Shown: in pieces, positions 17,282 through 45,364 of the stretch
Layout of the letters: the number at the start of each line of letters is the position of its first letter
Position numbering within the stretch: the stretch's first letter is position 1
Source: a phage
Reading direction: 5' to 3' (one strand)
DNA length: 64,000 bases
Sequence record: PZ495249.1
The notes under the pieces: model-generated
Seen by the model: only the letters and a program-made list of their open reading frames with translations
What the model was told of the DNA's origin: nothing
Database searches by the model: none
Translations under genes and position numbers: made by a program

Positions 17282-17305
17282 TTTAATCCTAAAGAGGAGA
17301 TGAAC

Positions 17306-24728: not shown

Positions 24729-24795
24729 GAGTTGATTTTCACAGGGGAGGTTGATATACTTCCCCTACACTTTAAAGAGAAAGAAGGAGAAATAC

Positions 24796-26803: not shown

Positions 26804-26804
26804 T

Positions 26805-27464: not shown

Positions 27465-28290
27465 CCAGAAACAACACTTCGCCCATGTCTTTAGCGACCT
27501 GACTGTTGCTTGTTTTAATACTGCCGACTACTCACGTCTGAAATTCGGTAGTAATCAAGCTGCGAAGCGTATGGGACGTAAACTGGCAGAGAGCTTCTAT
27601 GAAGCCCACAAACTGCGTCTGTTGAACGAACAGTTCGTGGTGATACCTTCGCCTTACAACTACGTTAAAAACGCAGCTACGGTGTTGTCAGAGCATTTTG
27701 TAGACCATCTCAACTATCTGATGAACCGTATGGGTGGTGCTTACCCAATTGAGTGGGATATCATCCATCGTAAGGTAAGTTACATTAATGATTACGGCTT
27801 CCTGAGTAAGGAAGATCGTAAGGCTCTGATCGATGGCGACACGTTCTCCATCAATAAAGACTTTTGGGGCAACAAGAATCTGATCTTCATTGATGACGTG
27901 AATATCACAGGAACCCATGAGGATAAGCTGATTGAGATCCTGGATGCAGAGAATGTAACTAACGACACATTTTTCCTGTACTTTGCCAAGTATAACGGCA
28001 ATGAGGCAAACACCGAAGCGGCGCTGAATTTCAGCGACATTAACAGTGTCTCTGCATTTGTGCAGATGATCAAGGATGAACCAGATGCCAAGTGTTTGGT
28101 ACGTCCAATCAAATATCTGATGAGCCAGAGTGAGATCACATTTAAGGTGGCACTCAGCCAGCTTCCGCTATCTTATGTTGAAGCACTCTACTTCGGCTGC
28201 CTGGCGGAAGGTTACAACAGCATTGAGAAATATGAAGAGAACTTTGAGTTCTTGGAACACTTCTTTGAAAGTAACATCTTGAACAAGTAA
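27457..28290 (+). CDS. type I phosphoribosyltransferase-fold protein
   Basis: PRPP-binding-loop-like LIFIDDVNITGTHEDKL; AAGGAGAAA RBS. Confidence 0.65.
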   Translation: MRNQKQHFAHVFSDLTVACFNTADYSRLKFGSNQAAKRMGRKLAESFYEAHKLRLLNEQFVVIPSPYNYVKNAATVLSEHFVDHLNYLMNRMGGAYPIEWDIIHRKVSYINDYGFLSKEDRKALIDGDTFSINKDFWGNKNLIFIDDVNITGTHEDKLIEILDAENVTNDTFFLYFAKYNGNEANTEAALNFSDINSVSAFVQMIKDEPDAKCLVRPIKYLMSQSEITFKVALSQLPLSYVEALYFGCLAEGYNSIEKYEENFEFLEHFFESNILNK

Positions 28291-28299
28291 GGAGAGAGA

Positions 28300-28857
28300 A
28301 TGCTAAGAGAGATTAAAGAAATATGGGCTTCTGATGCAGGACGTATTGCAGTATCTGCTGATGGTACATACGAAGTGATATTTAAACACATCACCAGGGT
28401 AGATGATGAGGGAGGGGTGTTTGCTCTGGTTGAAAGCAACATGCGTGATGGTGGTATCTTCAGTGATTTTGCTATTATTGGTGGGCGTCAGAAAATGTTT
28501 TGGAAATGCGAATATGCCAAGGAGTTAGACTATCCCGAAATGACACTGGATATATCCGCAGCAGTACATGCCAGTCGTTATGTTAATCAACCTCGTGGTG
28601 TATTTGAGGTAATGGCTTATCTCACTTCCGAAACCGGAGAATGTGCAGATTGGCTGGTAAACCCTGATCGTCAGAAAGAAGATCTCTTGGGAGAGTGTGC
28701 TGACGTTATTATCTGCGCATTGGACCTTGCACTGATGCACAAGAAGTCAACCAGTGGTCTTGATGGTCAGGAACTGGCAGACGAAGTGATCAGTCATCTC
28801 AATGATCTGCTGAAAGTTAAAGCTGAGAAATGGTTGGATAAACATGCAGCAGATTGA
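28300..28857 (+). CDS. hypothetical protein, possibly MazG-like helical NTP pyrophosphohydrolase
   Basis: track ORF; AAGGAGAGAGA RBS; ECADVIICALDLALMH helix. Confidence 0.55.
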   Translation: MLREIKEIWASDAGRIAVSADGTYEVIFKHITRVDDEGGVFALVESNMRDGGIFSDFAIIGGRQKMFWKCEYAKELDYPEMTLDISAAVHASRYVNQPRGVFEVMAYLTSETGECADWLVNPDRQKEDLLGECADVIICALDLALMHKKSTSGLDGQELADEVISHLNDLLKVKAEKWLDKHAAD

Positions 28858-29332
28858 ACCTATTCAATACCGAGAAGGAGATCTTCTTGTCGCAGCTTCG
28901 GAAGGTGAAGTAGATGCGATTGCGCACTGCTGCAACTGCTGGAACACAATGAGGAGCGGCATTGCTCCCAAGATTAAGGCTAAATGGCCTGATGTGTACG
29001 CCGCAGATTGTGCAACTATTAAAGGCGACAAGTACAAACTTGGTGGCTACAGTAAAGCTGTAGTTGAGGATGGTTTCCTGACTGTCTACAACCTGTACGG
29101 ACAGTACGGGGATAGTAAACGAGATCAAGGCATTCGTGACCTGAATTACAATGCCATCTACGATGCACTGGATGCGATGGGAGCAGACCTGGTAGCCAAT
29201 GGTGCAAGACGTGTGGGTTTACCCCTGATCGGTTGTGGCTTGGCTGGAGGTAAGTGGTCTGTCGTTGAGGCCATGATCAAAGAAACTCTGACGCTGAGAG
29301 GCTTAGAGGTAATTGTTTATCAATTGAAGTAA
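28844..29332 (+). CDS. macro-domain (ADP-ribose-binding/processing) protein
   Basis: GDLL...VDAIAHCCNC and GLPLIGCGLAGG motifs typical of macro domains. Confidence 0.7.
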   Translation: MQQIEPIQYREGDLLVAASEGEVDAIAHCCNCWNTMRSGIAPKIKAKWPDVYAADCATIKGDKYKLGGYSKAVVEDGFLTVYNLYGQYGDSKRDQGIRDLNYNAIYDALDAMGADLVANGARRVGLPLIGCGLAGGKWSVVEAMIKETLTLRGLEVIVYQLK

Positions 29333-29342
29333 GGAGAAAATT

Positions 29343-29546
29343 ATGGAGTTTATTGTAGGATTGTTATTTCTGGTGGTCATATTCCTGATTTGCCTGATCC
29401 CAACGTGGTTGCTGATGTTGGCATATAACTACATTGTTGTGCTCGTTGGTCATCCTAACTGGGAAATCCCTGTCACGCTGTTGAGTGTGGTATGTGTCGC
29501 ATTCATTCTGACAGTGATCCGTGGAATATTCCGAGGTCGAAAATGA
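29343..29546 (+). CDS. small membrane protein (67 aa)
   Basis: track ORF; AAGGAGAAAA RBS; two hydrophobic helices. Confidence 0.5.
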   Translation: MEFIVGLLFLVVIFLICLIPTWLLMLAYNYIVVLVGHPNWEIPVTLLSVVCVAFILTVIRGIFRGRK

Positions 29547-29758
29547 AAAGAATTTTGTTGACTCTGGCTCTCGTCCTCGGTACTATGGGGACAGCTAACG
29601 CCGATGAGGTGAGAGTGAATCAGGTTTACGATGGTTGGGATGCTGTGAATAAGATCTTCATCATGCAGGATGATCAGAACCACAAGTTCTGTTACATCGT
29701 AAGCAATTCGAGCGGTTCAGTTGGTATGTACTGTTTCGATAAAGAAAGTTCAAAATAA
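29543..29758 (+). CDS. small secreted protein with signal peptide (71 aa)
   Basis: track ORF 29492..29758 trimmed to Met with GAGGT RBS; MKRILLTLALVLGTMGTANA. Confidence 0.5.
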   Translation: MKRILLTLALVLGTMGTANADEVRVNQVYDGWDAVNKIFIMQDDQNHKFCYIVSNSSGSVGMYCFDKESSK

Positions 29759-29839
29759 CGCTTGACTCTGTGCGAAAAGAGAGTAAAGTATAAGTTATCA
29801 AGAGGGAGATAGGCTCCCTCTTCAAAAGAGGAGAAAAAC

Positions 29840-30820
29840 ATGACTCATTTCGGATTCCCACTGCTGGATATCGCAGTGCTGGTTGGTGTACTGGTACTGT
29901 CAATCGTAGTGGACTTCTTCGGTCATAAGGAGAATAAAGAGATTGGTATTAAAAGTGCGCTGGCATGGTCAGCATTCTGGATTGCCCTGGCGTTTGCGTA
30001 CTACGGTTTTATTTGGGTAGAGTACGGTAAAGAATTTGCTTCCCTCTTCCTAAGCGGGTATGTATTAGAGAAGTCCTTGTCGGTGGATAACCTGATGGTG
30101 TTCATGGCAATCTTTGCAAGTTTCGGTATCAAATCGACACACTTGCAGCATAAGATTCTGCTTTGGGGTATCGCAGGTGCAATCGTCTTCCGTGGTATCT
30201 TTGTAGCAGCAGGTACTGCACTGTTCAACCTTCACTGGTCTGTACAAGTGTTGTTCGGTTTGATTGTCGCATGGTCTGCAATGGCTATCATCAAAGGCGG
30301 TGAGGATGAAGAAGATGTGGATTACTCCAAACACTGGGCTACCCGTTTGGTTGGTAAGATCCTTCCGGTTCATCCGGCTCTTGATGGCGAGAAGTTCATC
30401 ACGATCAAAAACAATATCAAATACGCAACTCCAGCCCTGCTGTGTGTGTTCGTGGTAGAGTTTACTGACGTAATCTTCTCCTTCGACTCTGTACCTGCGG
30501 TGATCGGTGTGACACAAGAACCTCTGCTGGTTTACTCTGCGATGCTGTTCGCAATCCTGGGTTTACGTGCTTTGTTCTTCGTGCTGAGTGTTGCAGTTAA
30601 GTATCTGGTTCACCTGGAGAAAGCAGTGGCGGTGGTCCTGGTGTTTGTTGGTGCTAAACTGATTTACCACCCGTTCGGTGAAACGTTACATGCTAAGTGG
30701 GCGTTCCTGCCACACGATATCTCAGCCAACGTTAGTCTGTATATCGTACTGGGTACTTTGGCACTGGGTGTTCTGGCAAGCCTGGTCTTCCCTGAAAAAG
30801 AAGACGAAGCAACAGCTTAA
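29840..30820 (+). CDS. terC: TerC-family integral membrane protein
   Basis: LEKSLSVDNLMVF and FSFDSVPAVIGVT...AILGLRALFF motifs; about 9 helices; terminator downstream. Confidence 0.85.
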   Translation: MTHFGFPLLDIAVLVGVLVLSIVVDFFGHKENKEIGIKSALAWSAFWIALAFAYYGFIWVEYGKEFASLFLSGYVLEKSLSVDNLMVFMAIFASFGIKSTHLQHKILLWGIAGAIVFRGIFVAAGTALFNLHWSVQVLFGLIVAWSAMAIIKGGEDEEDVDYSKHWATRLVGKILPVHPALDGEKFITIKNNIKYATPALLCVFVVEFTDVIFSFDSVPAVIGVTQEPLLVYSAMLFAILGLRALFFVLSVAVKYLVHLEKAVAVVLVFVGAKLIYHPFGETLHAKWAFLPHDISANVSLYIVLGTLALGVLASLVFPEKEDEATA

Positions 30821-30825
30821 TCAAA

Positions 30826-30850
30826 AGAGCCTCCTTCGGGAGGCTTTTGT
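30826..30850 (+). terminator. rho-independent terminator
   Basis: GCCTCC-TTCG-GGAGGC stem plus TTTT; after terC. Confidence 0.6.
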
Positions 30851-30864
30851 ATAAGGAGAGAGAA

Positions 30865-31062
30865 GTGAAAATCTTAAAAGTGATCTGGATCGTGTTTGAA
30901 AATATTTGTTACGCAATCGGATTTTTATTTTTGTTCACGGTGTTGACAATGGTACTTAACGGAGGTACTATTGAAATCATGAAAGACGGGAAGCAAACAT
31001 ATTGCTACTCGACCGATAAAACTAAATGTGAAATTTCAAGCGAGGAGAACAAACATGACTAA
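30865..31062 (+). CDS. small membrane protein (65 aa), GTG start
   Basis: track ORF 30847..31062 trimmed to GTG preceded by AAGGAGAGAGAA. Confidence 0.45.
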   Translation: MKILKVIWIVFENICYAIGFLFLFTVLTMVLNGGTIEIMKDGKQTYCYSTDKTKCEISSEENKHD

Positions 31063-31618
31063 TATGAAACTGGTACTGGGTGCTGTGATCGTTCTGGGTG
31101 CAAGTATGCTGGCAGGTTGTGATGACGATGTTCCAAAACAAACTCAATACGTCCCTGCTCCTCAGCAGCAGATGGTGGATGAGCAATACGTTAACCAACC
31201 AGCGCCTCAAGTTGTTCAGGCGGCTCCTGCTCCGGTTATCGTTCAAAGCGGCGGTCATGATTCGGGTGTTGGTGATTTTGCCACTGGTATGATCCTGGGT
31301 CACATGATGAGCGGTGGTGGTAACGGTGGTGGTTATAGCAATAACTCCAGCCGTACCACGATCATCAATAACAACACCGTAGCACAGCCTCGTAGTGGTA
31401 GTAGCTATTCCAGCAAGACCACTCGTTATTATAACAACAGCGGTAAGCAGGTGTATCAAACGCAGTCCCGTCCGACTATGAGCACTAACAGCGCATACTC
31501 GGCTAAGAAATCCTACTCCAGCCCAATGAGTAGCTATAGTAAACCATCTCGTAGTTATAGCAGCAGCAAGAGCTTCTCCTCAAGTCGTAGCAGCTTTAGC
31601 TCAAGTCGTCGTCGCTAA
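31055..31618 (+). CDS. lipoprotein with Ser/Tyr-rich C-terminal tail
   Basis: track ORF 31028..31618 trimmed to Met with GAGGAGA RBS; lipobox LAGC. Confidence 0.65.
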   Translation: MTNMKLVLGAVIVLGASMLAGCDDDVPKQTQYVPAPQQQMVDEQYVNQPAPQVVQAAPAPVIVQSGGHDSGVGDFATGMILGHMMSGGGNGGGYSNNSSRTTIINNNTVAQPRSGSSYSSKTTRYYNNSGKQVYQTQSRPTMSTNSAYSAKKSYSSPMSSYSKPSRSYSSSKSFSSSRSSFSSSRRR

Positions 31619-31630
31619 TAAGGAGGCAAT

Positions 31631-31870
31631 ATGTTTAAGAATGCAAAGAAAGGTGATATCGCAGTAATGGTTGACACAGACTTCTCGGCACACGGGGATA
31701 AAGATCAACTGGAAATCGTCCTGGTTGACGAAGACGGTATCTACGTCTACGATCCGAATGACCGACTGCTGTTTCAGCACGAAAGTGGCGTTGAATTCAG
31801 CTTCCTTATTGATTTTGATGGCACATTAGCAGGACGTGAGCCAGCAATTAAAGAAATCATTCCGCAGTAA
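31631..31870 (+). CDS. hypothetical protein (79 aa)
   Basis: track ORF; AAGGAGG RBS. Confidence 0.55.
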   Translation: MFKNAKKGDIAVMVDTDFSAHGDKDQLEIVLVDEDGIYVYDPNDRLLFQHESGVEFSFLIDFDGTLAGREPAIKEIIPQ

Positions 31871-31939
31871 GGTTGACTTTTGCTTAGAGGGATAATAAAG
31901 TCCCTCTCGTCAAGAGAAACCAATAACAAAGGAGAGAAC

Positions 31940-32503
31940 ATGCAACTTATCGTAAATAATGTGTACCACCTGACCGGAGAAGGTTTCGCGGAGAGTGTTC
32001 TGGAAGATAACAGCAATCTTTTCAGACTTGTTCGCATTGAAAACAACGGTGATTGGGTGTTTAAGGGTGTAACAACAGGAACTACTCAATTCTCTGGTGC
32101 TGATATGGTGAAAACTGGTGAAGCCGTTATTACGCCAATGTACCCAGTTCTTCAAACAGAAAAACCAAAACGTGCCAAACGTAAAAAGGGTGAACGAAAC
32201 AAAGCCCCAACTGTAAATAAAGCGACAATTACTTTCACAAGTGGAGAGCAGTATACAGTGAAAGACTTTATTTCCATCGAAGTAACTGCTGAGAAGGTTG
32301 TCTTTATCATGGAAGATAACTGGAAAGATACTGTAAACTACCGTCAAGCAATCACCGTACCTAATGATGATGTTGCGCGTGTCAAAGTCCGTGGTGTTAA
32401 CCATCAATTTGAACTGGATATGTCACTCACCAACTTGGGGACTGTGATCCTCGAAGCTGAGGGTGCAGAAATGTACACATCCTCCATTAACATGACTGTA
32501 TAA
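31940..32503 (+). CDS. hypothetical protein (187 aa)
   Basis: track ORF 31880..32503 trimmed to Met with AAAGGAGAGAA RBS. Confidence 0.6.
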   Translation: MQLIVNNVYHLTGEGFAESVLEDNSNLFRLVRIENNGDWVFKGVTTGTTQFSGADMVKTGEAVITPMYPVLQTEKPKRAKRKKGERNKAPTVNKATITFTSGEQYTVKDFISIEVTAEKVVFIMEDNWKDTVNYRQAITVPNDDVARVKVRGVNHQFELDMSLTNLGTVILEAEGAEMYTSSINMTV

Positions 32504-32513
32504 GGAGAAAGAA

Positions 32514-33617
32514 ATGTCTAAGAGTCCATTCCTGAATGCCGTGAAAGGCAATAAGCATGGTGCAAGTGTTCTGACCACTGTTGATGACAAACGCTCTGCA
32601 CTGGCTCCAAGTGTGCTGGAAGCAAGCCCTGTGTTTGCTCCGGCAGTTGTTAAACCTGTACCTGCTCTTCCTGCAATGAGCCGCAAGGAGATTGATGGAG
32701 TGGGCGCTGAGGCAGGACTAACTCTGCGTAGCCTCAACAGCGAAGTGCTGAAACACCAACGTGGTAATCAAGGCGGGGAGATGAATGAACGCCTCACTGC
32801 CCTGATTAAACAGGCTAAACAGCTTGATCCTTCTTCAATCAAGCAGTCAAAAGGCGTTGGTAAATTCATCAAGAAGATCATGGGGCTGAAAGAAGATCTG
32901 TTTGCTGAGTACGACAACGTTAACAACCGTATTGATGTTCTGGTGAAAGAACTGGAAGGTGATGTACGTAAAGAGGAAGATTCACTTGTCTATCTGGAAA
33001 AACTGAAATCCGCTATTGCTCAGTACGCCATGAGCCTTAACCGTGATGTGGAACTCCTGACGGACACCTACGCAAAAGAGGAAGCACGTTTCTTGAATAC
33101 ACCAGAGGAACAAGTGGAAACTCGTACCGAGATCCGTGATACCCTGGATATTCTGGAGATTCGTATTGCTGACCTTAAAGCACTGCGTCTGCTGTGTGTT
33201 CAGATGGGACCACGAGTGAACAGTATGATCAAGGTTAGCGAGATGCTTATGCGATCTGCTCGTAACATAGTGAACAACGTTATTCCGGCTTACTCTGCAA
33301 ACTTCTCAATGTATATTGAGAGCTTACGCCAGGCAGAAGCTGGTAAAACTCAGGCTAATGTGTTGGATGAATTCAACACTGCAATTCAAATGGGGAGCGA
33401 TTTGGCTGCACAAAACATTATCAATGCTACGGCTCTGTCTAACCGTCAGATTCTGGACATTGAAACCCTGCGTAAAGATCAGGAAAACCTGGTTAAAATG
33501 CTGGAAGAAACCAACCGCATCAATACCGAGGCTCGCGCCGCTCGTATTGATTACATCAACGAGGTTCAATCCCTGGAAGATGGGATGATCCAAAAAGTCA
33601 AATCTGGCTTAGTGTAA
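32514..33617 (+). CDS. TelA-like (toxic anion resistance family) helical protein
   Basis: track ORF; AAGGAGAAAGA RBS; all-helical 367 aa; C-terminal ILDIETLRKDQENL..EETNRIN pattern recalled from TelA/YaaN proteins. Confidence 0.6.
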   Translation: MSKSPFLNAVKGNKHGASVLTTVDDKRSALAPSVLEASPVFAPAVVKPVPALPAMSRKEIDGVGAEAGLTLRSLNSEVLKHQRGNQGGEMNERLTALIKQAKQLDPSSIKQSKGVGKFIKKIMGLKEDLFAEYDNVNNRIDVLVKELEGDVRKEEDSLVYLEKLKSAIAQYAMSLNRDVELLTDTYAKEEARFLNTPEEQVETRTEIRDTLDILEIRIADLKALRLLCVQMGPRVNSMIKVSEMLMRSARNIVNNVIPAYSANFSMYIESLRQAEAGKTQANVLDEFNTAIQMGSDLAAQNIINATALSNRQILDIETLRKDQENLVKMLEETNRINTEARAARIDYINEVQSLEDGMIQKVKSGLV

Positions 33618-33626
33618 GGAGAAAAC

Positions 33627-33833
33627 ATGCGAATTCGTATTTATAAACTGGAAGATGGGTATGTAGCTGTTCGTTATGATGATGAAGAGCAGTTTGCAGG
33701 GAACAGTGATCATATTTTATCTTTCCCTAATCTGGAGCCTGTGTTGGCTGTTGGTCGTGAACTCTATGGTTATGACCAGTGTTCAGCAGAACGCTTTGAT
33801 GAACTTGAGTTGGTCAAGGAGTTTGAGGTATGA
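33627..33833 (+). CDS. hypothetical protein (68 aa)
   Basis: track ORF; AAGGAGAAAAC RBS. Confidence 0.5.
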   Translation: MRIRIYKLEDGYVAVRYDDEEQFAGNSDHILSFPNLEPVLAVGRELYGYDQCSAERFDELELVKEFEV

Positions 33834-34069
33834 AGATTGCTCTCGTAATTGCCGATTGCGGTGATGGTAGCGCCACTATTCGTTTCTTCAAAGATGTTGA
33901 CTTTGCGGAGAAGATCGCTTACCATGATTACTTCTGTGAAGAGTTAGCAATGAGCGAAGGTGGAACAATCATCGAAGTGCCTGATGACTTCAAACCACCC
34001 GCTGGTTGGTCAGATCAAGACTATCGTGAAGAAGTAGAACGTGCAGGGTTGGATTTAGACGATGAGTGA
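33830..34069 (+). CDS. acidic hypothetical protein (79 aa)
   Basis: track ORF; ATGA overlap. Confidence 0.5.
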   Translation: MKIALVIADCGDGSATIRFFKDVDFAEKIAYHDYFCEELAMSEGGTIIEVPDDFKPPAGWSDQDYREEVERAGLDLDDE

Positions 34070-34268
34070 TAAAATTGTCTTGACACGCGAAGAGTTGAAG
34101 ACTATCATTGAAGACGCATTCATAGATGGTTGGAAGCAAGGGCAAGAATCGGATTGGTACGATGCAGAAGACTTTTTGCACTACCACGCCAATCCAGATG
34201 GTTCTGAGGAAGAAACTCAGTCTGAAACAACCATCGCAATCAAAAACTTAATGGAGGAAAAATTATGA
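34062..34268 (+). CDS. hypothetical protein (68 aa)
   Basis: track ORF; overlaps neighbours. Confidence 0.5.
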   Translation: MSDKIVLTREELKTIIEDAFIDGWKQGQESDWYDAEDFLHYHANPDGSEEETQSETTIAIKNLMEEKL

Positions 34269-35059
34269 GCGAGAAAATTAGTCTGGTGAAACGTCAGGAA
34301 CAACTGGTAATCAGCCTGAAAAAGAAAAAGATTGCACAGATCGTACTGCGCGTTGCATCTGCACTGGATATCTCCGGTAGTATGCACAGCCTATATCGTA
34401 ACGGGACTGTTAGCGATTTCGTTGGTAAACTCCTGCCGTTCGGTATGCAGTTTGACGATAACCAGCAGATCGATATGTGGGCGTTCAACAACTACTCTTC
34501 TGAACTGCCGCCAGCTACCGCTGACGTGTACGATGACTATGTAGGTAAATGTATGCGTAACGTATCCATCAATGGTGGCACGAGCTACGCACCAGTTATC
34601 CAGGCGATCTACGACGAATACTTTGGCTCTACGCCAATGAAAACTGTATCTCGTGAAGTTGAGGTACAAGAGCAGCGTCCGGTGAGCGGTTTCTTTGCCA
34701 AACTGACAGGTAAAACTGAAACCGTTACTGTCAAGAAAACGATCACAGAACAAGTACCAGATACCTCTGCGCCTGTGGATACCACACCTGCAATGGTGTT
34801 CTTCCAGACTGATGGTGAGAACAATGACGAATCCGCAGTACGCGCTGTACTGAACCGTAACAAAGGTAAACCTATCTACTGGTTCATGGTTGGTGTTGGT
34901 AATGCTCGCTTTAGCTTCCTGAAAGCTCTGGCAAATGAATACGATAACGTAGCTTTCATCGGCATTGATGACCTGGATCTGTCTGACGAGCAACTCTATG
35001 ACAAACTGCTGTCTGATGAGTTTGGTCAGTGGGTTGAGAAAGTAGGTGCAAAAAACTAA
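34265..35059 (+). CDS. von Willebrand factor A domain protein (TerY-like)
   Basis: MIDAS motif LDISGSM; vWA fold pattern; directly upstream of TerD. Confidence 0.75.
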   Translation: MSEKISLVKRQEQLVISLKKKKIAQIVLRVASALDISGSMHSLYRNGTVSDFVGKLLPFGMQFDDNQQIDMWAFNNYSSELPPATADVYDDYVGKCMRNVSINGGTSYAPVIQAIYDEYFGSTPMKTVSREVEVQEQRPVSGFFAKLTGKTETVTVKKTITEQVPDTSAPVDTTPAMVFFQTDGENNDESAVRAVLNRNKGKPIYWFMVGVGNARFSFLKALANEYDNVAFIGIDDLDLSDEQLYDKLLSDEFGQWVEKVGAKN

Positions 35060-35164
35060 AAATAGTTGTTGACTTACCCGAAGAAATACGTAGAATAGAT
35101 TACATCAAAGGGGAAGAGCGGTTCTTCCCCCCAGTAAATGAAAACAGAAAGAAGGAGAACATAC

Positions 35165-35767
35165 ATGTCTGAGAAAATTTCCCTGAAAAAAGGTTCCACC
35201 GAAAAGATCTCCCTGAAAAAGATCGCACCTCTGCTGAAAGAGATTCGTCTGGAATTCTCCTGGAAATCATCCACTAAACTGGATCTGGACGTAAGCGCAC
35301 TGGTGTGCCGTCATAATGCCTCTGGTAATCCAGAAATGCTGTCTGCCCGTCACCTGGTTTGCTATGCAAACAAAGTTGATCCAGAGCGTTCAACCTTCGC
35401 TGGCGAAGATGTTCGTGATGGTACTGGCAACCTGGAGCAGATCGATGTTACTCTGAGTAAAATCTCCCAGAATGCAGATGAAATTGCATTCGTGATCACC
35501 ATCGACGATGAAACTGGTCAGAAGCGCCTCGGTCATGCCTCCGAAGGTATGCTGAAAATCTTCGACGCAGAACGTAACGTCGAGATCCTGGACTTTGACT
35601 TCCTTGCACCGGAAGTTGCTGGTAACACCATCTGTCACGTAGCTTCGCTGGTTCGCGAAGATGGCGAATGGAAACTGAAAGCCTACGGTGTTGGTAAAGC
35701 AGGTATGGATATCTGTGATGTGGTGGTAGCATTCGGTGGTGACGTCAACTGGTTTGACTGCCCGTAA
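35165..35767 (+). CDS. terD: TerD-domain protein
   Basis: track ORF 35138..35767 trimmed to Met with AGAAGGAGAA RBS; TerD pattern ISLKKG..LDLDVSAL..GEDVRDGTG..EWKLKAYGVG. Confidence 0.8.
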   Translation: MSEKISLKKGSTEKISLKKIAPLLKEIRLEFSWKSSTKLDLDVSALVCRHNASGNPEMLSARHLVCYANKVDPERSTFAGEDVRDGTGNLEQIDVTLSKISQNADEIAFVITIDDETGQKRLGHASEGMLKIFDAERNVEILDFDFLAPEVAGNTICHVASLVREDGEWKLKAYGVGKAGMDICDVVVAFGGDVNWFDCP

Positions 35768-36488: not shown

Positions 36489-36512
36489 AGGGGCGAAAGC
36501 CCCTTTCTCTTG
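36489..36512 (+). terminator. rho-independent terminator
   Basis: AGGGGC-GAAA-GCCCCT stem plus T-rich tail. Confidence 0.55.
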
Positions 36513-36569
36513 CAAAATCCTCCCTCCTGTGATAGAATAATAGTTCGTAAAACAAAAAGGAGGCAAAAT

Positions 36570-37094
36570 TTGCTGATACGAAACTTTGTAACAATTGCGT
36601 TACTATCATTAACTGCTTTTACATTTACACCTGTAATCGGCGTTGCCGAAGCTGCAAACGTAAAGACCGCTAAAGTAGTCCACAAGTGTACAAAGCGAGA
36701 TACGAAAGAAAATCTTTTAGCTTGTGCAATGTACGCAGAGAGCCGTAACCAAGGAAAGAAAGGAATGGCTGCTGTCGGTAATGTTGTTCTGAATCGTGTT
36801 AACGATCCTCAGTTCCCTAAGACCGTCAAAGGTGTTCTCTTCCAACCAGGACAATTCTCATACACGTATAAAGGCGCATTTAATGTCGTCGAAAAGGACA
36901 GATGGCAGGAGGCAAAGCATATTGCTGATCGCTTAATCTACCTTGATAAGAACTTCCCCGAAGCTCGTGATGCAACAGATGTAACGAAAGGGGCTAAGTA
37001 TTTCAAAAAGAAGAATATCCGTACCCATTGGGAGAAGGATATGATCTTGGTGTACCGTTACAAGGAACATCAATTCTATATACCTAAGAGCTAA
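36570..37094 (+). CDS. SleB/CwlJ-family cell-wall hydrolase with N-terminal signal anchor (endolysin candidate), TTG start
   Basis: track ORF 36510..37094 trimmed to TTG 6 nt after AAGGAGG; CAMYAESRNQG...GNVVLNRV...FQPGQFS hydrolase motifs. Confidence 0.7.
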   Translation: MLIRNFVTIALLSLTAFTFTPVIGVAEAANVKTAKVVHKCTKRDTKENLLACAMYAESRNQGKKGMAAVGNVVLNRVNDPQFPKTVKGVLFQPGQFSYTYKGAFNVVEKDRWQEAKHIADRLIYLDKNFPEARDATDVTKGAKYFKKKNIRTHWEKDMILVYRYKEHQFYIPKS

Positions 37095-37784: not shown

Positions 37785-37846
37785 TAGGCAATACCGATTG
37801 GACATTTCCACTGATCGGTGCTAAATTAACATTACAGGAGGGAGAA

Positions 37847-38410
37847 ATGATCTTCCACATTACTCCCTATCTTTCTGGTGATATCGGCAAAGGCATCAAC
37901 GATACCATCCGTGAACTGCCGGAAGATAGTTGGATTTGCTTGAGGGATATCGACACGATGTTCCTACTACCAGAACAACCGATGTGGCTTGAAACCCTCG
38001 TCCGTTCTAACCCAGAGTATGATGTTATTGGTGCATCATGCAACCGCTTGGGATCTACTTACCAATTGTTCGGTAACGAAATAAGTGACGATTCAGACAT
38101 ACGCAATCACATAGAAATTGCGAAAGCAGCCCGAACAGCCTGGGGCAATAGCATTGAAGATGTTCCTCTGGGAGTACCACTTGCAGGATTCTTCTTATTA
38201 TTCAGGAAGAGTTTGTGGCAAGAAATTCCATTCGAAGAAAGATCTATTCAATTCGATTTAATCTTCTCTAATACTCTACACGCAGCAGGAAAGCGATTAG
38301 GAATCATGCGAGGAATGTATCTGTTCCATACTTATCGTCTTGGAGCAATCGATCCACGTAGAGCCATTTCGCATCTCATTCACTGCCAGGATATGGAGAA
38401 GGTAATATGA
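37847..38410 (+). CDS. hypothetical protein (187 aa), possible sugar-nucleotide transferase
   Basis: track ORF; CAGGAGGGAGAA RBS; heads a three-gene block with two glycosyltransferase-like paralogs. Confidence 0.55.
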   Translation: MIFHITPYLSGDIGKGINDTIRELPEDSWICLRDIDTMFLLPEQPMWLETLVRSNPEYDVIGASCNRLGSTYQLFGNEISDDSDIRNHIEIAKAARTAWGNSIEDVPLGVPLAGFFLLFRKSLWQEIPFEERSIQFDLIFSNTLHAAGKRLGIMRGMYLFHTYRLGAIDPRRAISHLIHCQDMEKVI

Positions 38411-38436
38411 TTGATAATTTAAGGAGGATGTTAAAC

Positions 38437-39405
38437 ATGCTTGTTCATAAGCCCCGCTTATATTGTGATAACAAGTTAGGGAGTGGGTGCGACTATCACC
38501 GAGTGGTGATGCCTTTTGCTGATAATAAATTCAAACCAAAAGAGAATGTATTGGTGTTCAACCGTATTTATTCTCGTGGTGCAGAAGAGGTTCGCCGTCT
38601 GAAAGAGCGTGGTGTTAAAGTGGTAGTAGATTTAGATGACTTCTATGAACTTAACCCTGAGCATTACCTGGCAAGCGTGTTCACAAGTCACACACAGAAC
38701 ATCATTGACATGGTGAAATTAGCAGATATTGTTATCGTCACCACTGAATATCTGGCTTACAAGGTAAGGCCACTGAATAGAAATGTGGTGGTTATCCGTA
38801 ACGCACTGCCTTTCGACACTGGTCAGTTTACCCTGAGTGAAGATAAAGAGTCAGACACTCCGCTGATATGGGCGGGTGGTGCAAGTCACTATCCTGATCT
38901 ATCTCTTGTCTCGAACAGTTTTGATGATGATTTGTTAACAATTGCCGGATATGAAGAGCACAAGTCTGCTCCTGCTGGTAGTCATCAGCAATTGACAACT
39001 GCCGAGTGGAGAAAAGTCAGACGTAAGCTACCAAATGCACAATACAAACCAGCAGTACATCATTTAGGCGAGTATATGTCGGTGTACGATGGTCATGCCG
39101 TAGCTATTGCTCCCTTGGTTGATAACGACTTCAATGCTTGTAAAAGCAACTTGAAGATCCTGGAGGCAGGAGCTAAGGGACTACCTATCATTTGTTCTAA
39201 GGTGTTACCATATTATAATCCGGTGGATGCTAACGTGGTGTTTTATGCTGAATCCCGCGCAGAATGGCACTACGAGGTGGTGAAACTTCTTCGTAATCCA
39301 AACTACGCAGAGGATCGTGGTTTAATGCTTGCAGAACACGTCAGAACACATTACAATCTTGATGATGCAAATGAATTGCGCCGACAAGTGATCGAAAGTT
39401 TATAA
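38437..39405 (+). CDS. putative GT-B-type glycosyltransferase, paralog 1
   Basis: track ORF 38407..39405 trimmed to Met after AAGGAGG; C-terminal KSNLKILEAGAKGLPIICS motif. Confidence 0.6.
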   Translation: MLVHKPRLYCDNKLGSGCDYHRVVMPFADNKFKPKENVLVFNRIYSRGAEEVRRLKERGVKVVVDLDDFYELNPEHYLASVFTSHTQNIIDMVKLADIVIVTTEYLAYKVRPLNRNVVVIRNALPFDTGQFTLSEDKESDTPLIWAGGASHYPDLSLVSNSFDDDLLTIAGYEEHKSAPAGSHQQLTTAEWRKVRRKLPNAQYKPAVHHLGEYMSVYDGHAVAIAPLVDNDFNACKSNLKILEAGAKGLPIICSKVLPYYNPVDANVVFYAESRAEWHYEVVKLLRNPNYAEDRGLMLAEHVRTHYNLDDANELRRQVIESL

Positions 39406-39413
39406 GGAGTTCT

Positions 39414-40358
39414 ATGCCTAACATTGTGCTTGACACACGCGACGGACATAATTATAGTGTCTGTGATTTCCATAGAATTATCCTTCCATACAAACGAGCG
39501 CTCACCATTAACCCACAACACAATATCTTCGTGTTCAATGGTGTGCCTACTCGTGGGAAGTCAGGATTCCTGGCTCTCAAACAACTTGGTTTCAAAATGG
39601 TTATGGATCTTGATGACTCTCTACATATTCCAGAAGGACATATGCTTGAGGACTTGTTTGATACCCGTATCCGTGATGACCTCAAGTGGTTTTTGGAACG
39701 GAGTGATTTGGTAACAACAACTACTCCTGCTCTCCAGAAAGAACTCTCAGAATATAATGACAACGTGCATATTGTGCCGAATGGTTTGCCTTTCGATGAA
39801 TGGCAATTCACCATAACAAAGGATCGTTATTCTAAGAGTCCACTGGTGTGGGCTGGCAGTGAAACCCATAAACATGACTTGGCAATCCTACCGCCCCTCG
39901 GTAAGATGCTAACACTCTGCGGATTCCGTAGAGACAAAGAAGAGCTAAGTAGCTTGCAATGGATATTGATACGAGAAGATATTCAACCTGATTGTATCTA
40001 TGAAGGTGTCCGACCATACGCCACTTACATGGAATCGTATGACGGTCATCAGGTGAGCATTGCTCCACTTGTGGATAATCCTTTTAATAATGCAAAAAGC
40101 AATCTCAAGATTCTTGAGGCTGGAGCCAAAGGCTTACCGCTGATTTGTTCTCCTCGTGAGAATTATTTCACCGAAGAGTTTAAGGATCTGGTTTACTTTG
40201 CCGATTCATTATCCGAATGGAAAGATCTGGTAGAATACTTAGTAGAGTCTCCAGATATTTGTGTTGAAAAGGGAATGGCCTTAGCCAAATATGTACGTGC
40301 TCAATACAGTATTGACGCATTAAACGAGACTCGTAGATTACTTATTGAGAGGTTGTAA
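39414..40358 (+). CDS. putative GT-B-type glycosyltransferase, paralog 2
   Basis: track ORF; AAGGAG RBS; same C-terminal motif (KSNLKILEAGAKGLPLICS) and overall colinearity with paralog 1. Confidence 0.6.
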   Translation: MPNIVLDTRDGHNYSVCDFHRIILPYKRALTINPQHNIFVFNGVPTRGKSGFLALKQLGFKMVMDLDDSLHIPEGHMLEDLFDTRIRDDLKWFLERSDLVTTTTPALQKELSEYNDNVHIVPNGLPFDEWQFTITKDRYSKSPLVWAGSETHKHDLAILPPLGKMLTLCGFRRDKEELSSLQWILIREDIQPDCIYEGVRPYATYMESYDGHQVSIAPLVDNPFNNAKSNLKILEAGAKGLPLICSPRENYFTEEFKDLVYFADSLSEWKDLVEYLVESPDICVEKGMALAKYVRAQYSIDALNETRRLLIERL

Positions 40359-40627
40359 TGAACACATTCGATTTTGAATATAACTTGCCGTCCGGCACTC
40401 CTGTAATTGTCGAAGTAGATTTCTTCTACGAAGAACCAAATCCATTGTCTCGTGAAAGTGATTGGGACTTCTACGGTGGACTCATCATTGATGATGTTCG
40501 TGTCTATGATGGAATGGAAGAAATATCCAACGTAAGTATTACAGGTGCAGAAATAGCTTTCCAATTTAAGAAATACAAGGAAGACTTGGAACTTAATTAT
40601 GTAATGGAGAGCAACGAATATTTTTAA
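40358..40627 (+). CDS. hypothetical protein (89 aa)
   Basis: track ORF; overlaps stop of upstream gene. Confidence 0.55.
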   Translation: MNTFDFEYNLPSGTPVIVEVDFFYEEPNPLSRESDWDFYGGLIIDDVRVYDGMEEISNVSITGAEIAFQFKKYKEDLELNYVMESNEYF

Positions 40628-40639
40628 CAGGAGAAACCA

Positions 40640-42409
40640 GTGACACATGTTGTAAATAAGTACGGCTTTAATATTGATTTGAGTCGAGAAGGTCACACTG
40701 GTTGTCCACGTTGTATGAAGAATGGTAGAGATCGTTCACAGAATAACTTGATGGTATATGGGTTAGATAGTGGCGGTGAGCACAAAGGAGCACACTGCTT
40801 CTCATGCGAATTTACCATTCCGAGTCAAGAATGGTTGGATGAACACGGTGAAGAAATTGAAGAGGAGGATATCTTGGGAAGCGAGTTCAACCCACAAATT
40901 CATGATAAACTGAAAGAACAAACCGGAACAAACCCACGAGGCTATCGTGGAATCCGAGAAGATATTTCAAAACCCCTGGGTGTACGTTATGGTTATGATG
41001 CTGAAACAGGCAATGTGACAGACACATATTATCCAACCACTAAGAGCTATCAGATCGCAGGTTATAAACACCGCATTGATCCGAAAGACTTTACGCAACC
41101 CGTAGGGGAAACAGGTAAAGAATGTGACCTGTTCGGTGAGTTTAAATATCGAAACCACAGTGGTACAATCGTCATCGTAGGTGGTGAGCATGACATGCTT
41201 GCAGCTACACAGATGCTGATGGATCATAACAAAGGTGGTAAATACCCTGTGCCAGCCGTTGTCTCTGGTACATGCGGTGAGAGTTCCCTGCACAAGCAAC
41301 TGCAATCACGCTACAAGTTCCTTGATCAGTTCAAGAAAATCATTCTCTGCATGGACAATGATGATGCTGGTAGAGCAGCAGTAGAGAAGTGTGTTAAGAT
41401 TCTACCTCGCAACAAAGTGTACGTGATGGACTTAACTGAGGTTAAAGATCCTAATCAGGCACTTGAAGAAGGGAAGGTTGATCACTTCATTGACCGATTC
41501 TTTAAAGCGAAGATGTACACCCCTGCTGGTGTATACGCATCAAACGTCCTGTACGAGGCTGCATTGGAATGTTTGGAGGCTAAGGTCATAACCCTACCGC
41601 CATTCATGCGACAGGCTGCTAACATGCTTGGAGGCGGTTTGGTGGAGGAAGAGATTACTGTTATTCTGGCTAAAACCAGTATCGGTAAAACTCTCCTGGT
41701 GAATGAGATCACCAAACACATTATCATGGCGCACCCAGAGCATACTCTTGGCGTTCTTTCCTTGGAGGCAACGTACAAGAAGTATTCTCGTAACTTGCTG
41801 TCATCTTTCCTGCACATTCCTCTGCACCGTAAAACGGCAGAAGAGAAACAGGAGATCCTGAAAGCGAATGAGGAGAGAATTCGTAACTTCTACGAGCACG
41901 AAGACGGCACTCCACGTTTCTACGTGTGTGATGACCGAGGAGCTAACGTAGACGTTATCAAGGAAAAGGTTCTGGAGATGATCATCTACTTCGGAGTGAC
42001 AATCCTTGTTATCGACCCTTATTCTGACTTGCTTTCTGGTATGGATGTTTCCGCGCAGGAAGAACTCGCAACTTGGCTGAAACGTATTATGAAAGAGTAC
42101 GGTATCACTATTATCGTAATCTCTCACGTTAAGAAGTCTTCCAATAACAGCAATGAACACATTGTGGAAGATGATGCAATGGGTAGTAGCTTCCTGGCTA
42201 AAGGTGCTGGTATCACCATCGCACTGGAACGTGACAAACAAGCAGAAGATCCAATGGAACGAAACCGTACATATTGCTACATCCTCAAGAACCGTGAGTT
42301 CTCTGAGACAGGTGCAGCAGGTAGTTTCTTCTATGAAATCAAGACTGCTACCCTTCATGATTACGATCAGTACATGAACAAACTGCCTGTACCCGAAGGT
42401 AGTTATTAA
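40640..42409 (+). CDS. bifunctional DNA primase/helicase (T7 gp4-like), GTG start
   Basis: N-terminal Cys4 zinc ribbon; TOPRIM-like acidic motifs (MDNDDAG); C-terminal P-loop KTSIGKT. Confidence 0.85.
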   Translation: MTHVVNKYGFNIDLSREGHTGCPRCMKNGRDRSQNNLMVYGLDSGGEHKGAHCFSCEFTIPSQEWLDEHGEEIEEEDILGSEFNPQIHDKLKEQTGTNPRGYRGIREDISKPLGVRYGYDAETGNVTDTYYPTTKSYQIAGYKHRIDPKDFTQPVGETGKECDLFGEFKYRNHSGTIVIVGGEHDMLAATQMLMDHNKGGKYPVPAVVSGTCGESSLHKQLQSRYKFLDQFKKIILCMDNDDAGRAAVEKCVKILPRNKVYVMDLTEVKDPNQALEEGKVDHFIDRFFKAKMYTPAGVYASNVLYEAALECLEAKVITLPPFMRQAANMLGGGLVEEEITVILAKTSIGKTLLVNEITKHIIMAHPEHTLGVLSLEATYKKYSRNLLSSFLHIPLHRKTAEEKQEILKANEERIRNFYEHEDGTPRFYVCDDRGANVDVIKEKVLEMIIYFGVTILVIDPYSDLLSGMDVSAQEELATWLKRIMKEYGITIIVISHVKKSSNNSNEHIVEDDAMGSSFLAKGAGITIALERDKQAEDPMERNRTYCYILKNREFSETGAAGSFFYEIKTATLHDYDQYMNKLPVPEGSY

Positions 42410-42778: not shown

Positions 42779-45364
42779 ATGGGAGCATTTACTTTCGACA
42801 TTGAAAGTAACAACTTGCTTAATGATGAGAGTGTGGATTACCTGTCAAGTCCTTATCGACTGAAAGACAGTTTCGAGATGCACTGTATTGTATGCGAGAG
42901 TCATGACACCGGAGAGATTATTGCTTTCCACGATGGAGACAAGTATCACTTCGATGGTCGTCCTTACGTAGAGACTGACGGGAAATACACTTACAGCCTG
43001 TTAGAATACGAACATCAGGATTACACCCATTTTCCAATGAGCGCATTCCGAGACTTCGTTAAAGGCACTGGTGTATTTGCCAACAAACCTCAGTACAAGA
43101 TTACGAAAGTAGTTGGTCATAACATTATCAACTTTGACTTGTTAGCCATTAAACTCTACTTTAAAATGAATTACAGCGTGAAATACAATACTTGGGATAA
43201 TCAGGATGTAGAAATCTGTGATACCATGATCCTGAGTAAAGTGCTGAACCCTGACCGTTTCGGTGGTCATAGCCTGGCGGAATTATCCAGCAAGGCAGGT
43301 GGTGATGTTAAGCTTGACTTCCGTAAAGATATTCCGGTTGAAGATCGATTCAAAACGTTTGCAGCAGACATGCTCTATTACTGTATTTACGATAACAAAT
43401 CGAACACCGCCGTATATAAATATCTGATGGAAGAATGGGGAGACTACGATAAATGGGCGGAACCATTTATTCTTGAACAACGTATTGCTGATATTATCAC
43501 TCGTCAGGAACACCGTGGCTTCGCTTTCAATATGAAACAAGCCGAAGAGAATATAAAAGATCTTGATTCTAAGATGGAAGCGTGTAGACTTGAGGCTGAA
43601 CCTATTCTTCCTCCGAAACCTGCAACGAAAGGTTATCTGAAAGACTTCATTCCGCCTAAACTCCAGTTTAAGAAGAATGGTGATCCAACGAGTAACATTA
43701 CGAAGTTTGCAGCTAAGCATGGTGGTGAACTGGTTGAACGTGAAGATGGATGGTGGTTGATCGCCTTGGATAAGGAAATGAAACTTCCTATCTCCAGTGA
43801 AGAGCCAATCTGTGAACCTACTGTTCCGGCTACACTGAACGACACGACACACATCAAGAACTGGCTGGTAGGATTAGGCTGGAGTCCTTCTGAGTACAAA
43901 GATAAAGACATTACGTTGAAGTCTGGTACTAAGATTAAAAAGGACGAGGCGCAGATGGAGAAAGCGATTCGCGATTACGTGGATCAAACTTTAGCATCAA
44001 ACTTCTGTCAAGATCGTTGTGACCACCTTGAATGTACGCCTGAAACTCTTGAGTGGAAGCTGCGTGACCGTATTGCTAAGGCAAAAGGTAAAGGTGTGAA
44101 GGTATTGACTAACCCATCATTCACCAAGGGGCAGGAGAAAGAGATTTGTCCTAACTTGGCTGAACTGGGTGAGAAGTTCCCGTATGCTACCCAGATCGTG
44201 GAATACCTGACGTACAAACACCGTCGAAACTCTATTCTCGGTGGTGGTGCAGATTGGGAAGATGATGAAGAGGATCAGGAATACAACAAAGGTTATCTTG
44301 CAGCAGTAAGGGCAGACGGGCGTATTCCAACGCCAGCGGCAACGTGTGACGCTGCTACTTCTCGTATGAAACACCGTCTTGTTGCTAACATTCCTCGTGT
44401 AACCTCTCTATACGGTTTCCAGATGCGTAACATGTTTGGTGTAGAGGTTCCGGCATACTTCCAGATTGGTTATGACTTTGACTCACTTGAGGCGAAGATT
44501 GAATCACATTACTGCTGGAGATATGAAGCAGAGCCGCATGAATATTGTAACGCTCTTCTGTTAGAAAAGCCGCACGATGTTCACTCAATGATGGCACGAC
44601 GCATTACAGAAACTATCGGACGTAAGTTTGAACGTGCTCCGGCTAAATCTGTTAAGTATGGTATCACATACGGCGCTCAGGCTGCGAAGGTGGCTAAGAC
44701 AATCGGTAGTGATATGCACACAGGCCAGATGGTTTATGATGCATTCTGGGAAGCTGCAAAGCCTCTCGCATTACTGAAAGAACGTCTGCATGACTTCTGG
44801 GTTAAAACAGGTAAGAAATACATTCTCGGTATCGACGGACGTAAAGTGCCTACCCGTTCTGCTCACGCTATCCTGAACTCACTTTTCCAGAGTGGCGGGG
44901 TAATCTGTGCGAAACGTGCAATGGTGATTTACGACGACCTGATCGAAGAAGAAGGGCTGGCAGTTGACTTCTTTGTTGACGATTGGAAAAACAAATCCTT
45001 CGTGCAGCAAATGATCGCTTACCACGATGAAGCACAACTTGAGGTTACTCGTGACCTGGTTGAGTTCAAATGGTTCTCCAAAGAATCTCTGGGCTGGATT
45101 CAAGTTGAGGATGAGAAAGAGCAGGAACGAATCGACAAAGAATGTATGGCTAAAGTAAATGCGTGGAAAGCTGAGGAAGAAACTCGTACTGGTAAGATCT
45201 GGGCTAACGTACACGAATCTCCGAAAGGTGGTTGGTTTACTGGCTACAGTCGTGCAGGTGAACTGGCATCCATCGCAGTTAAGAAAGCAGGTGAATTCTA
45301 TGGCCTGAACGTAGAACTGACAGCAGGTTATGACTTAGGTAATTCCTGGGCGTCCTGTCACTGA
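42779..45364 (+). CDS. family A DNA polymerase with 3-prime to 5-prime exonuclease domain
   Basis: Exo motif FDIESNNL; polymerase motif B-like KSVKYGITYGAQ; HDEAQ motif C; 861 aa. Confidence 0.85.
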   Translation: MGAFTFDIESNNLLNDESVDYLSSPYRLKDSFEMHCIVCESHDTGEIIAFHDGDKYHFDGRPYVETDGKYTYSLLEYEHQDYTHFPMSAFRDFVKGTGVFANKPQYKITKVVGHNIINFDLLAIKLYFKMNYSVKYNTWDNQDVEICDTMILSKVLNPDRFGGHSLAELSSKAGGDVKLDFRKDIPVEDRFKTFAADMLYYCIYDNKSNTAVYKYLMEEWGDYDKWAEPFILEQRIADIITRQEHRGFAFNMKQAEENIKDLDSKMEACRLEAEPILPPKPATKGYLKDFIPPKLQFKKNGDPTSNITKFAAKHGGELVEREDGWWLIALDKEMKLPISSEEPICEPTVPATLNDTTHIKNWLVGLGWSPSEYKDKDITLKSGTKIKKDEAQMEKAIRDYVDQTLASNFCQDRCDHLECTPETLEWKLRDRIAKAKGKGVKVLTNPSFTKGQEKEICPNLAELGEKFPYATQIVEYLTYKHRRNSILGGGADWEDDEEDQEYNKGYLAAVRADGRIPTPAATCDAATSRMKHRLVANIPRVTSLYGFQMRNMFGVEVPAYFQIGYDFDSLEAKIESHYCWRYEAEPHEYCNALLLEKPHDVHSMMARRITETIGRKFERAPAKSVKYGITYGAQAAKVAKTIGSDMHTGQMVYDAFWEAAKPLALLKERLHDFWVKTGKKYILGIDGRKVPTRSAHAILNSLFQSGGVICAKRAMVIYDDLIEEEGLAVDFFVDDWKNKSFVQQMIAYHDEAQLEVTRDLVEFKWFSKESLGWIQVEDEKEQERIDKECMAKVNAWKAEEETRTGKIWANVHESPKGGWFTGYSRAGELASIAVKKAGEFYGLNVELTAGYDLGNSWASCH

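Follow-up and report, generated by a model that had tools for sequence, protein, structure and literature searches.

The DNA analyzed here is a 64,000-nt stretch of a phage genome (sequence record PZ495249.1), hereafter called the window, which carries a cassette of three glycosyltransferase (GT) genes upstream of the replisome genes. The source is a large virulent myovirus akin to phi92 and phAPEC8 (Stephanstirmvirinae). All data on this phage itself come from the window, and statements on the remainder of its genome are drawn from relatives. The GT region shares about 71% nucleotide identity with E. coli Justusliebigvirus genomes, and over a wider stretch of 20 kb the identity to the Klebsiella phages phi1_175008, KP13-26 and KP2025 is about 80%.

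The three open reading frames (ORFs) of the cassette are closely spaced and all encoded on the plus strand. The first gene, GT-A (37847..38410, +), encodes a minimal GT-A-fold glycosyltransferase of 187 amino acids (aa) with the invariant residues D34-x-D36 and H161. It is followed by two genes for GT4-like GT-B glycosyltransferases, namely GTB1 (38437..39405, +; 322 aa; phrog_7162, E=7.6e-140) and its ancient paralog GTB2 (39414..40358, +; 314 aa). For GTB1, the mechanical ORF begins at 38407. The start is placed at 38437 because the ATG at this position is preceded by a ribosome-binding site (AAGGAGG, about 8 nt upstream) and because the GTB1 homologues are 322-324 aa long. An ORF for an acidic protein of 89 aa (40358..40627, +; phrog_4240, E=2.6e-26) follows, with its ATG overlapping the stop codon of GTB2; further downstream lie the genes for a primase-helicase (40640-42409) and a DNA polymerase (42779-45364). 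A first-pass annotation of the same DNA had proposed these three ORFs with this start of GTB1 and this position upstream of the replisome genes, all of which is borne out. In all relatives (loci L001, L002 and L013), the 89-aa ORF likewise separates the GT genes from the primase gene, and its product may be a candidate partner of either the GTs or the replisome.

Within the 62-nt gap upstream of the GT-A gene, a consensus scan detected a sigma-70-like promoter element (37799..37827, +) consisting of TGGACA, a spacer of 17 nt and TAAATT with a TG extension. Relatives infecting E. coli or Klebsiella retain the element (TTGGAC...TGCTAAAT), which presumably acts as an early or middle promoter. The promoter and terminator scans did not exceed the shuffled expectation, and the promoter region as a whole was not above chance; a second occurrence of the motif was not found elsewhere in the window.

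Fold and conserved residues of the three enzymes

All three proteins match glycosyltransferase families of PHROGs (GT-A, E=1e-102; GTB1, E=8e-140; GTB2, E=1.5e-134). GTB1 and GTB2 are colinear and share 37% identity over 323 residues (E=8e-74). Pfam matches to the two are weak and comprise Glyco_trans_1_2, Glyco_trans_1_4 and Glyco_transf_4, with the first two found for GTB1; GTB2 reaches 25.1 bits on PF13524 (cutoff 25) and GTB1 21.5 bits on PF13692 (cutoff 27). A profile search against the Protein Data Bank (PDB) returned noise for GT-A and, for the GT-B profile, only weak matches to GT4 enzymes at the C-terminus, single-sequence searches against PDB sequences returned noise, and NCBIfam gave no match. 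AlphaFold models built with alignments of homologues are confident and confirm the GT-B fold, with two Rossmann-like domains separated by a cleft. The earlier description of the two genes as colinear GT-B paralogs is thus corroborated by sequence identity, PHROG profiles and fold, and no protein was modeled with a non-glycosyltransferase fold, the models being of the GT-B and GT-A types.

Both paralogs carry the motif KSNLKILEAGAKGLP(I/L)ICS, which the first-pass annotation had assigned to the nucleotide-sugar site of GT-B enzymes. K228, S229 and E235 are invariant in 39 family members, and in an alignment with TreT and TarM, E235 falls on the Glu that is conserved in the nucleotide-sugar helix of GT4 enzymes. 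Judged from this alignment, the motif appears to correspond to that helix. The canonical EX7E pair is not kept: the residue eight positions upstream of E235 is an Ala located beside the invariant K228-S229. Compared with bacterial retaining GT-B enzymes of family GT4 (sucrose-phosphate synthase, HepE, PglA/PglH, BshA, PimA, TarM, TreT), the GT-B proteins of the window are short (314-322 aa), lack the conserved first Glu of EX7E in favor of the adjoining Lys-Ser pair, score at or below the Pfam thresholds, and belong to a family with invariant N-domain motifs of its own, CD(Y/F)HR and DLDD.

The best structural matches of the GT-B models are often enzymes acting on small molecules, such as sucrose-phosphate synthase, BshA, TreT, GlgM, tetrahydrobiopterin GT and SenB. 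The T4 alpha-GT ranks 15th, the T4 beta-GT 31st and the HY126 GT 37th, and a phiRSL1 protein with a domain of the TET-associated glycosyltransferase (TAGT) family is found at rank 39 in BFVD. The GT-B fold is hence no nearer to the DNA transferases of T4 or HY126 than to ordinary GT4 enzymes. The TAGT family of Pfam was not matched by any protein of the window. Transmembrane segments were not predicted in any of the GTs, and the three proteins are soluble cytoplasmic enzymes.

The 187-aa protein, described earlier as a possible transferase, consists of a single alpha/beta/alpha GT-A domain, and this description is made firmer by the fold, the DxD motif and the PHROG glycosyltransferase match. 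No match was obtained in Pfam at E<=1 or in NCBIfam, and only PHROG families were hit. D34-I-D36 and H161 are invariant in 26 GT-A sequences down to 32% identity, and the D34-I-D36 motif is predicted to bind the metal. The family comprises 1111 cluster representatives at E<=1e-3, many of which carry, by fusion, an additional GT domain (TOD1/MUCI70 or GT2), a Methyltransf_24 domain or both. Such fusions are suggestive of stepwise oligosaccharide synthesis accompanied by O-methylation of the sugars.

The cassette across relatives and its sugar donor

The order TelA, vWA-TerF, TerD, hydrolase, GTs, 89-aa ORF, primase and polymerase is kept in the E. coli phages, the Klebsiella phage and a relative from a soil metagenome. 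In the E. coli phages, the cassette encodes four GTs, namely GT-A, a GT of 228 aa, GTB1 and GTB2. The soil relative, with protein identities of 47-59%, has the same four GTs in the same place. Since so distant a relative has all four, the four-gene cassette is ancestral and the duplication that gave rise to GTB1 and GTB2 is old. The gene for the 228-aa GT was not found in the window, neither within the cassette nor elsewhere in the 64 kb. The Klebsiella phage phi1_175008 has two cassette GTs and no GTB2, and a homologue of the 228-aa GT (35% identity) is encoded in its early region. The respective genes are located at 7382-8068 in L001, 13062-13694 in L010 and 8325-9005 in L013. According to hhalign, the 187-aa GT-A is unrelated to this fourth GT of the E. 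coli relatives.

GT-A and GTB1 form the constant core of the cassette. The identity to the orthologues of the E. coli phages amounts to 79% for GT-A, 77% for GTB1 and 83% for GTB2, and GTB1 is 67% identical to the orthologue of the Klebsiella phage. GT-B homologues are found in 144 records of the isolate collection (270 places in total); among the phages listed, those of E. coli have two and those of Klebsiella one.

Genes for the synthesis of dTDP-rhamnose (rml) were not found in the window. The E. coli relatives encode RmlB, RmlA, RmlC and RmlD about 70 kb from the GT cassette, among genes for ribonucleotide reductase, thymidine kinase and a ThyX-like protein. Klebsiella phage phi1_175008 retains rmlC and rmlD (L010, 30306-31714) without rmlA and rmlB. 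The rhamnose-specific half of the dTDP-rhamnose pathway is therefore its conserved part. RmlC and RmlD alone imply a dependence on dTDP-4-keto-6-deoxyglucose of the host, an intermediate of the pathway for enterobacterial common antigen (ECA). Because both relatives examined encode RmlC and RmlD, dTDP-L-rhamnose is probably the donor of at least one GT; for the phage of the window, this assignment is carried over from the relatives.

In the proposed mechanism, GT-A, GTB1 and GTB2 would act in sequence and use nucleotide-sugars to assemble a short oligosaccharide whose acceptor would not be DNA. GT-A and GTB1 would make the core of the glycan, which GTB2, and the 228-aa GT where present, would extend or vary. 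Nucleoside diphosphate (NDP) sugars of the host and dTDP-rhamnose made by the phage would serve as donors. The occurrence of two, three or four GTs among relatives would be expected under such a scheme, as length or composition of the glycan would vary.

DNA as a candidate acceptor

From the position next to the replication module, the first-pass annotation had deduced a system for glycosylation of DNA bases, in which the GTs would transfer sugars to a modified base of the replicating phage DNA as an anti-restriction hypermodification. DNA glycosylation has also been proposed for phi92-like phages (PMC7552041). In its favor, the cassette adjoins the primase and polymerase genes, with which it is probably co-transcribed, and the rml genes of the E. 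coli relatives are located among genes of nucleotide metabolism. Known DNA GTs of phages likewise belong to the GT-A or GT-B type, and several of them work serially. As proven GT-B enzymes acting on DNA also resemble BshA, MshA and PglH, the fold is compatible with a DNA acceptor. The 228-aa GT of the E. coli relatives additionally shows a sub-threshold match to the TAGT family (PF20691, E=7e-5, 23.3 bits, cutoff 27.5). This hint does not carry over to the window, however, because the TAGT-like gene is not present there and the 187-aa GT-A is unrelated to it.

Characterized phage systems for DNA glycosylation first produce a hydroxylated pyrimidine, either by a ThyA homologue or by a C5-methyltransferase combined with a TET-type dioxygenase (PMC13326640; bioRxiv 10.1101/2023.12.21.572611). 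Neither a ThyA-type hydroxymethylase or hydroxylase, nor a TET/JBP enzyme, nor a C5-methyltransferase was detected in the window ORFs scanned, which agrees with the earlier remark that no base hydroxymethylase is visible there. The same holds for the annotation of the Klebsiella relative PQ360875, whose whole genome was covered, in four pieces; the sole candidate is a ThyX-like protein. This divergent protein of 323 aa, labeled 'thymidylate synthase' in relatives (L003, 1488-2459; L010, 36730-37698), shows a partial match to Pfam Thy1 (E=4e-9) and contains the ThyX-type motif HR..S....S.R; a sequence match in the PDB was not obtained.

Susceptibility to restriction-modification (RM) systems also argues against a hypermodified genome. 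Although phi92-like phages possess a 'putative dTDP glycosylation machinery', the BASEL study found them 'exceptionally susceptible' to RM systems (PMC8594841). This susceptibility is echoed in PMC10844046, where DNA glycosylation is likewise doubted. The RM-susceptible E. coli relatives carry the fuller cassette of four GTs and rmlABCD. A nucleoside analysis for the group of phi92-like phages was not found in the literature.

The window itself bears the marks of extreme restriction-site avoidance. Half of the six-base palindromes (32 of 64) are missing from the 64 kb, as opposed to 50 of 2016 non-palindromic word pairs, and the median ratio of observed to expected palindromes is 0.50. CTAG does not occur in the window (1-64000) where about 107 copies are expected, and GGCC is observed 21 times with 101 expected. 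The absent sites include those of BamHI, KpnI, PstI, SalI, XhoI, SacI, SphI, NcoI, PvuII, ScaI, XbaI, SpeI, NheI, AvrII, SmaI and ApaI. GATC is not avoided, and neither are the sites of EcoRI and EcoRV, which persist at normal frequency; these two are the type II systems by which the BASEL relatives are restricted. The tendency is shared by relatives, but palindrome avoidance is weaker in those infecting Klebsiella, which contain about 90 CTAG per 50 kb. The complete absence of CTAG is hence peculiar to the phage of the window. Blanket hypermodification would lift the selection for such purging; the DNA of the phage is therefore taken to be cleavable by restriction enzymes. Restriction-site avoidance in the same sequence provides a cheap counter-test to DNA hypermodification.

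All three GTs are acidic (isoelectric point, pI, 5.3-6.2), a further and weak point against DNA as the acceptor. As a proxy for DNA binding, pI and charge were considered too weak to be weighed.

The acceptor of the glycan is probably not DNA. Anti-restriction hypermodification of the bases appears unlikely for this phage, and its deduction from the proximity to the replisome genes is not supported: a base hydroxylase was not detected, relatives are sensitive to RM systems, and restriction sites have been purged. GT genes located beside replication genes are an insufficient basis for inferring DNA hypermodification. A sparse or site-specific mark on the DNA that needs no known hydroxymethylase is very improbable. 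Such a mark might, for instance, be a rhamnose glycan on a base activated by the ThyX-like or an unrecognized protein. It could leave both restriction sensitivity and site avoidance in place and might conceivably serve in packaging, in self-recognition or in evading a defense other than RM; if real, its purpose would be other than anti-restriction.

Other acceptors and comparison with known systems

Distant homologues of both GT families are found in phage cassettes together with GT2, GT-D-like enzymes, a DegT aminotransferase, an NDP-sugar epimerase/dehydratase, UDP-galactopyranose mutase (GLF), a polysaccharide deacetylase, TylF or Methyltransf_24, and Stealth. O-methyltransferases are frequent in these cassettes, and the enzyme set is typical of stepwise oligosaccharide assembly. 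In five separate lineages, such homologues are encoded within head or packaging modules. L004 has them between the terminase and portal/capsid genes, L015 directly after the large terminase gene, and L018 between the genes for the small and large terminase. In L017, a lambda-like siphovirus, they separate the major capsid gene from the tail genes, and in phi18:2, a cultured phage of Cellulophaga, they separate portal/MuF from prohead protease/major capsid. Because homologues occupy head modules and the architecture resembles the cassette of mycobacteriophage Che8, the virion proteins of the phage itself are preferred as the acceptor. This assignment, made by analogy, is tentative and is given a probability of roughly one in three.

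Several points weigh against it. A report of a glycoprotein in the virion of Stephanstirmvirinae or of any other enterobacterial phage was not found in the literature. The cassette is located in the replication block behind the sigma-70-like, presumably early or middle, promoter and lacks a methyltransferase. With no rml genes in the window, the rhamnose donor is deduced indirectly for this phage. Some of the siphoviruses with GT genes in head modules are possibly temperate, and these genes could be conversion morons. Furthermore, hhalign comparisons of the window GTs with Che8 gp108-110 gave probabilities below 1% in all three cases, and the likeness is thus one of architecture only. An acceptor site in the tail sheath was also considered. 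The sheath protein ends in an S/T/N-rich stretch in the Klebsiella relative (...NRTSNSTTSNSSTTSS) and in Justusliebigvirus VEcB (...NRTANSQNSNSSTVSS); the sheath genes are located at 23015-24421 in L014, 301-1707 in L020 and 301-1674 in L021. As a possible O-glycan acceptor, the S/T-rich tail is a vague candidate, since it does not go along with the presence of GTs: the sheath of Phapecoctavirus stops at ...NRTAN, yet this genus keeps the GTs. Phage JEP7, reported to be without a virion glycoprotein, could not be placed taxonomically and was set aside.

The region upstream of the cassette is occupied by a nearly complete Ter system (26784-35767), which is kept in relatives including the phage from the soil metagenome. 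It comprises genes for a HAD hydrolase (26784-27464), a ComF-like phosphoribosyltransferase (PRTase_3; 27457-28290), a Macro domain protein (28844-29332), TerC (29840-30820), TelA (32514-33617), vWA-TerF (34265-35059) and TerD (35138-35767). The gene for a SleB-type cell-wall hydrolase (36510-37094; Pfam Hydrolase_2, E=1e-21) follows the Ter block and precedes the GT cassette. Its longest ORF begins at TTG, and the first approximately 80 residues lie outside the domain and contain an apparently hydrophobic stretch, as judged by eye. In relatives, the protein is annotated as an endolysin.

As the cassette lies directly downstream of these genes, Ter, hydrolase and GTs could form one block that remodels the host envelope. 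The soluble GTs would add rhamnose or other sugars to lipid-linked intermediates of ECA, O-antigen, capsule or the core of lipopolysaccharide (LPS) in the cytoplasm, and the altered receptors would keep out superinfecting phages or prevent the adsorption of progeny to debris. Iyer et al. linked phage Ter genes to superinfection exclusion, and clusters of GT and NDP-sugar genes to modification of host polysaccharides (PMC7824862). The variation of the GT repertoire among relatives with different hosts, the early expression suggested by the sigma-70-like promoter, and the retention of RmlC and RmlD alone in the Klebsiella relative, by which an intermediate of the ECA pathway would be tapped, fit the same picture. 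However, genes for a membrane protein, a flippase, a polymerase or an initiating transferase are lacking in the cassette. For a virulent phage, the slow turnover of the surface within a single lytic cycle is a further objection. The adjacency to Ter may merely reflect conserved synteny, and the site between portal and capsid genes at which homologues occur would be unusual for conversion genes. Remodeling of the envelope, the main rival of the virion reading, is rated as doubtful; if it occurred, it would be a new route of superinfection exclusion in a virulent phage.

The Ter block also draws attention to other cytoplasmic acceptors, such as a small molecule (for example a nucleoside-like product of the Ter PRTase and HAD enzymes), a non-structural protein or RNA of host or phage, with a role in host takeover or anti-defense. 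Nucleoside or nucleotide derivatives are the predicted products of the PRTase and HAD enzymes (PMC7824862), which are encoded about 10 kb upstream, many of the top structural matches of the GT-B models use small-molecule acceptors, and BASEL labels the GT-B genes 'putative disaccharide synthase'. On the other hand, seven Pfam-annotated genes and further ORFs separate the GTs from the PRTase and HAD genes, and some phages with GT homologues have no Ter genes at all. An oligosaccharide is also suggested over a simple glycoside by the serial arrangement of three to four GTs and by the frequent methyltransferase partners. Acceptors of this kind are considered rather unlikely.

Further upstream in the window, genes related to the salvage of nicotinamide adenine dinucleotide (NAD) are found. 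A protein of 356 aa with a C-terminal AAA_28 domain (15652-16722) has a Klebsiella counterpart annotated as nicotinamide-nucleotide adenylyltransferase, and together with a PnuC nicotinamide mononucleotide transporter (17300-17998) it points to NAD salvage. The Klebsiella relative additionally encodes NAMPT, phosphoribosyl pyrophosphate (PRPP) synthase and Sir2. Two genes for AAA/nSTAND3-like ATPases (7140-8264 on the minus strand, 24751-25956 on the plus strand) are possibly paralogs.

Glycosylation of virion proteins, the preferred reading, has its precedent in mycobacteriophages. According to PMC12363180, Freeman et al. 2023 found that Che8, Corndog and Myrna have glycosylated proteins; the same paper names Che8 gp110 and Corndog gp38 as glycosyltransferases essential for capsid glycosylation. 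Che8 gp108-110 comprise a fusion of GT2 with Methyltransf_24/TylF (gp108) and two stand-alone GT-A enzymes of about 200 aa. Both the Che8 genes and the window cassette are thus small clusters of soluble GTs that include a stand-alone GT-A enzyme of about this size, and the gp108 fusion mirrors the fusions and gene neighbors of the GT-A family of the window in other phages. Since the Che8 cassette is located in the non-structural right arm, outside the structural operon, the position of the window cassette outside the structural genes is no objection. In contrast to the window, Che8 has no GT-B enzyme; the window in turn lacks a methyltransferase of the Che8 type, and its host is Gram-negative. 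If the virion of this phage carries a glycan, it would be the first case of virion glycosylation in enterobacterial phages. Stephanstirmvirinae are broad-host-range phages that are often picked for therapy and biocontrol cocktails, and such a glycan could affect antibody recognition and pharmacokinetics.

A possible analogy is the glycosylation of the spore surface in Bacillus subtilis, where SpsA, a GT-A enzyme, and CgeB are encoded along with the rml genes spsI-L. CgeB is the source of Pfam PF13524; close homology of SpsA or CgeB to the window GTs is not seen. The DNA GTs of phages, namely the alpha- and beta-glucosyltransferases of T4, the 5-hydroxycytosine (5hoC) arabinosyltransferases of HY126 and RB69 and the TET-associated GTs, differ in that their systems always include an enzyme that makes 5-hydroxymethylcytosine (5hmC), 5-hydroxymethyluracil (5hmU) or 5hoC, which was detected neither in the window ORFs scanned nor in the annotation of PQ360875.

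The closest counterpart is the cassette of Stephanstirmvirinae themselves (Justusliebigvirus/phi92-like phages and Phapecoctavirus; NC_052653 gp079-082, the region of phi92 gene 163, and BASEL phage EmilieFrey), which is orthologous and falls into the same PHROG families. The window genes share with it the orthology within phrog_14179 and phrog_7162 as well as the position between TerD/hydrolase and 89-aa ORF/primase/polymerase. The cassette is not a new find, because annotators of RefSeq, PHROGs and BASEL have already labeled its genes as 'glycosyltransferase' or 'putative disaccharide synthase'. It differs in having three genes, whereas the E. coli and soil relatives have four, with the additional 228-aa GT encoded between GT-A and GTB1. 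The window thus holds a three-gene variant of a known and annotated cassette.

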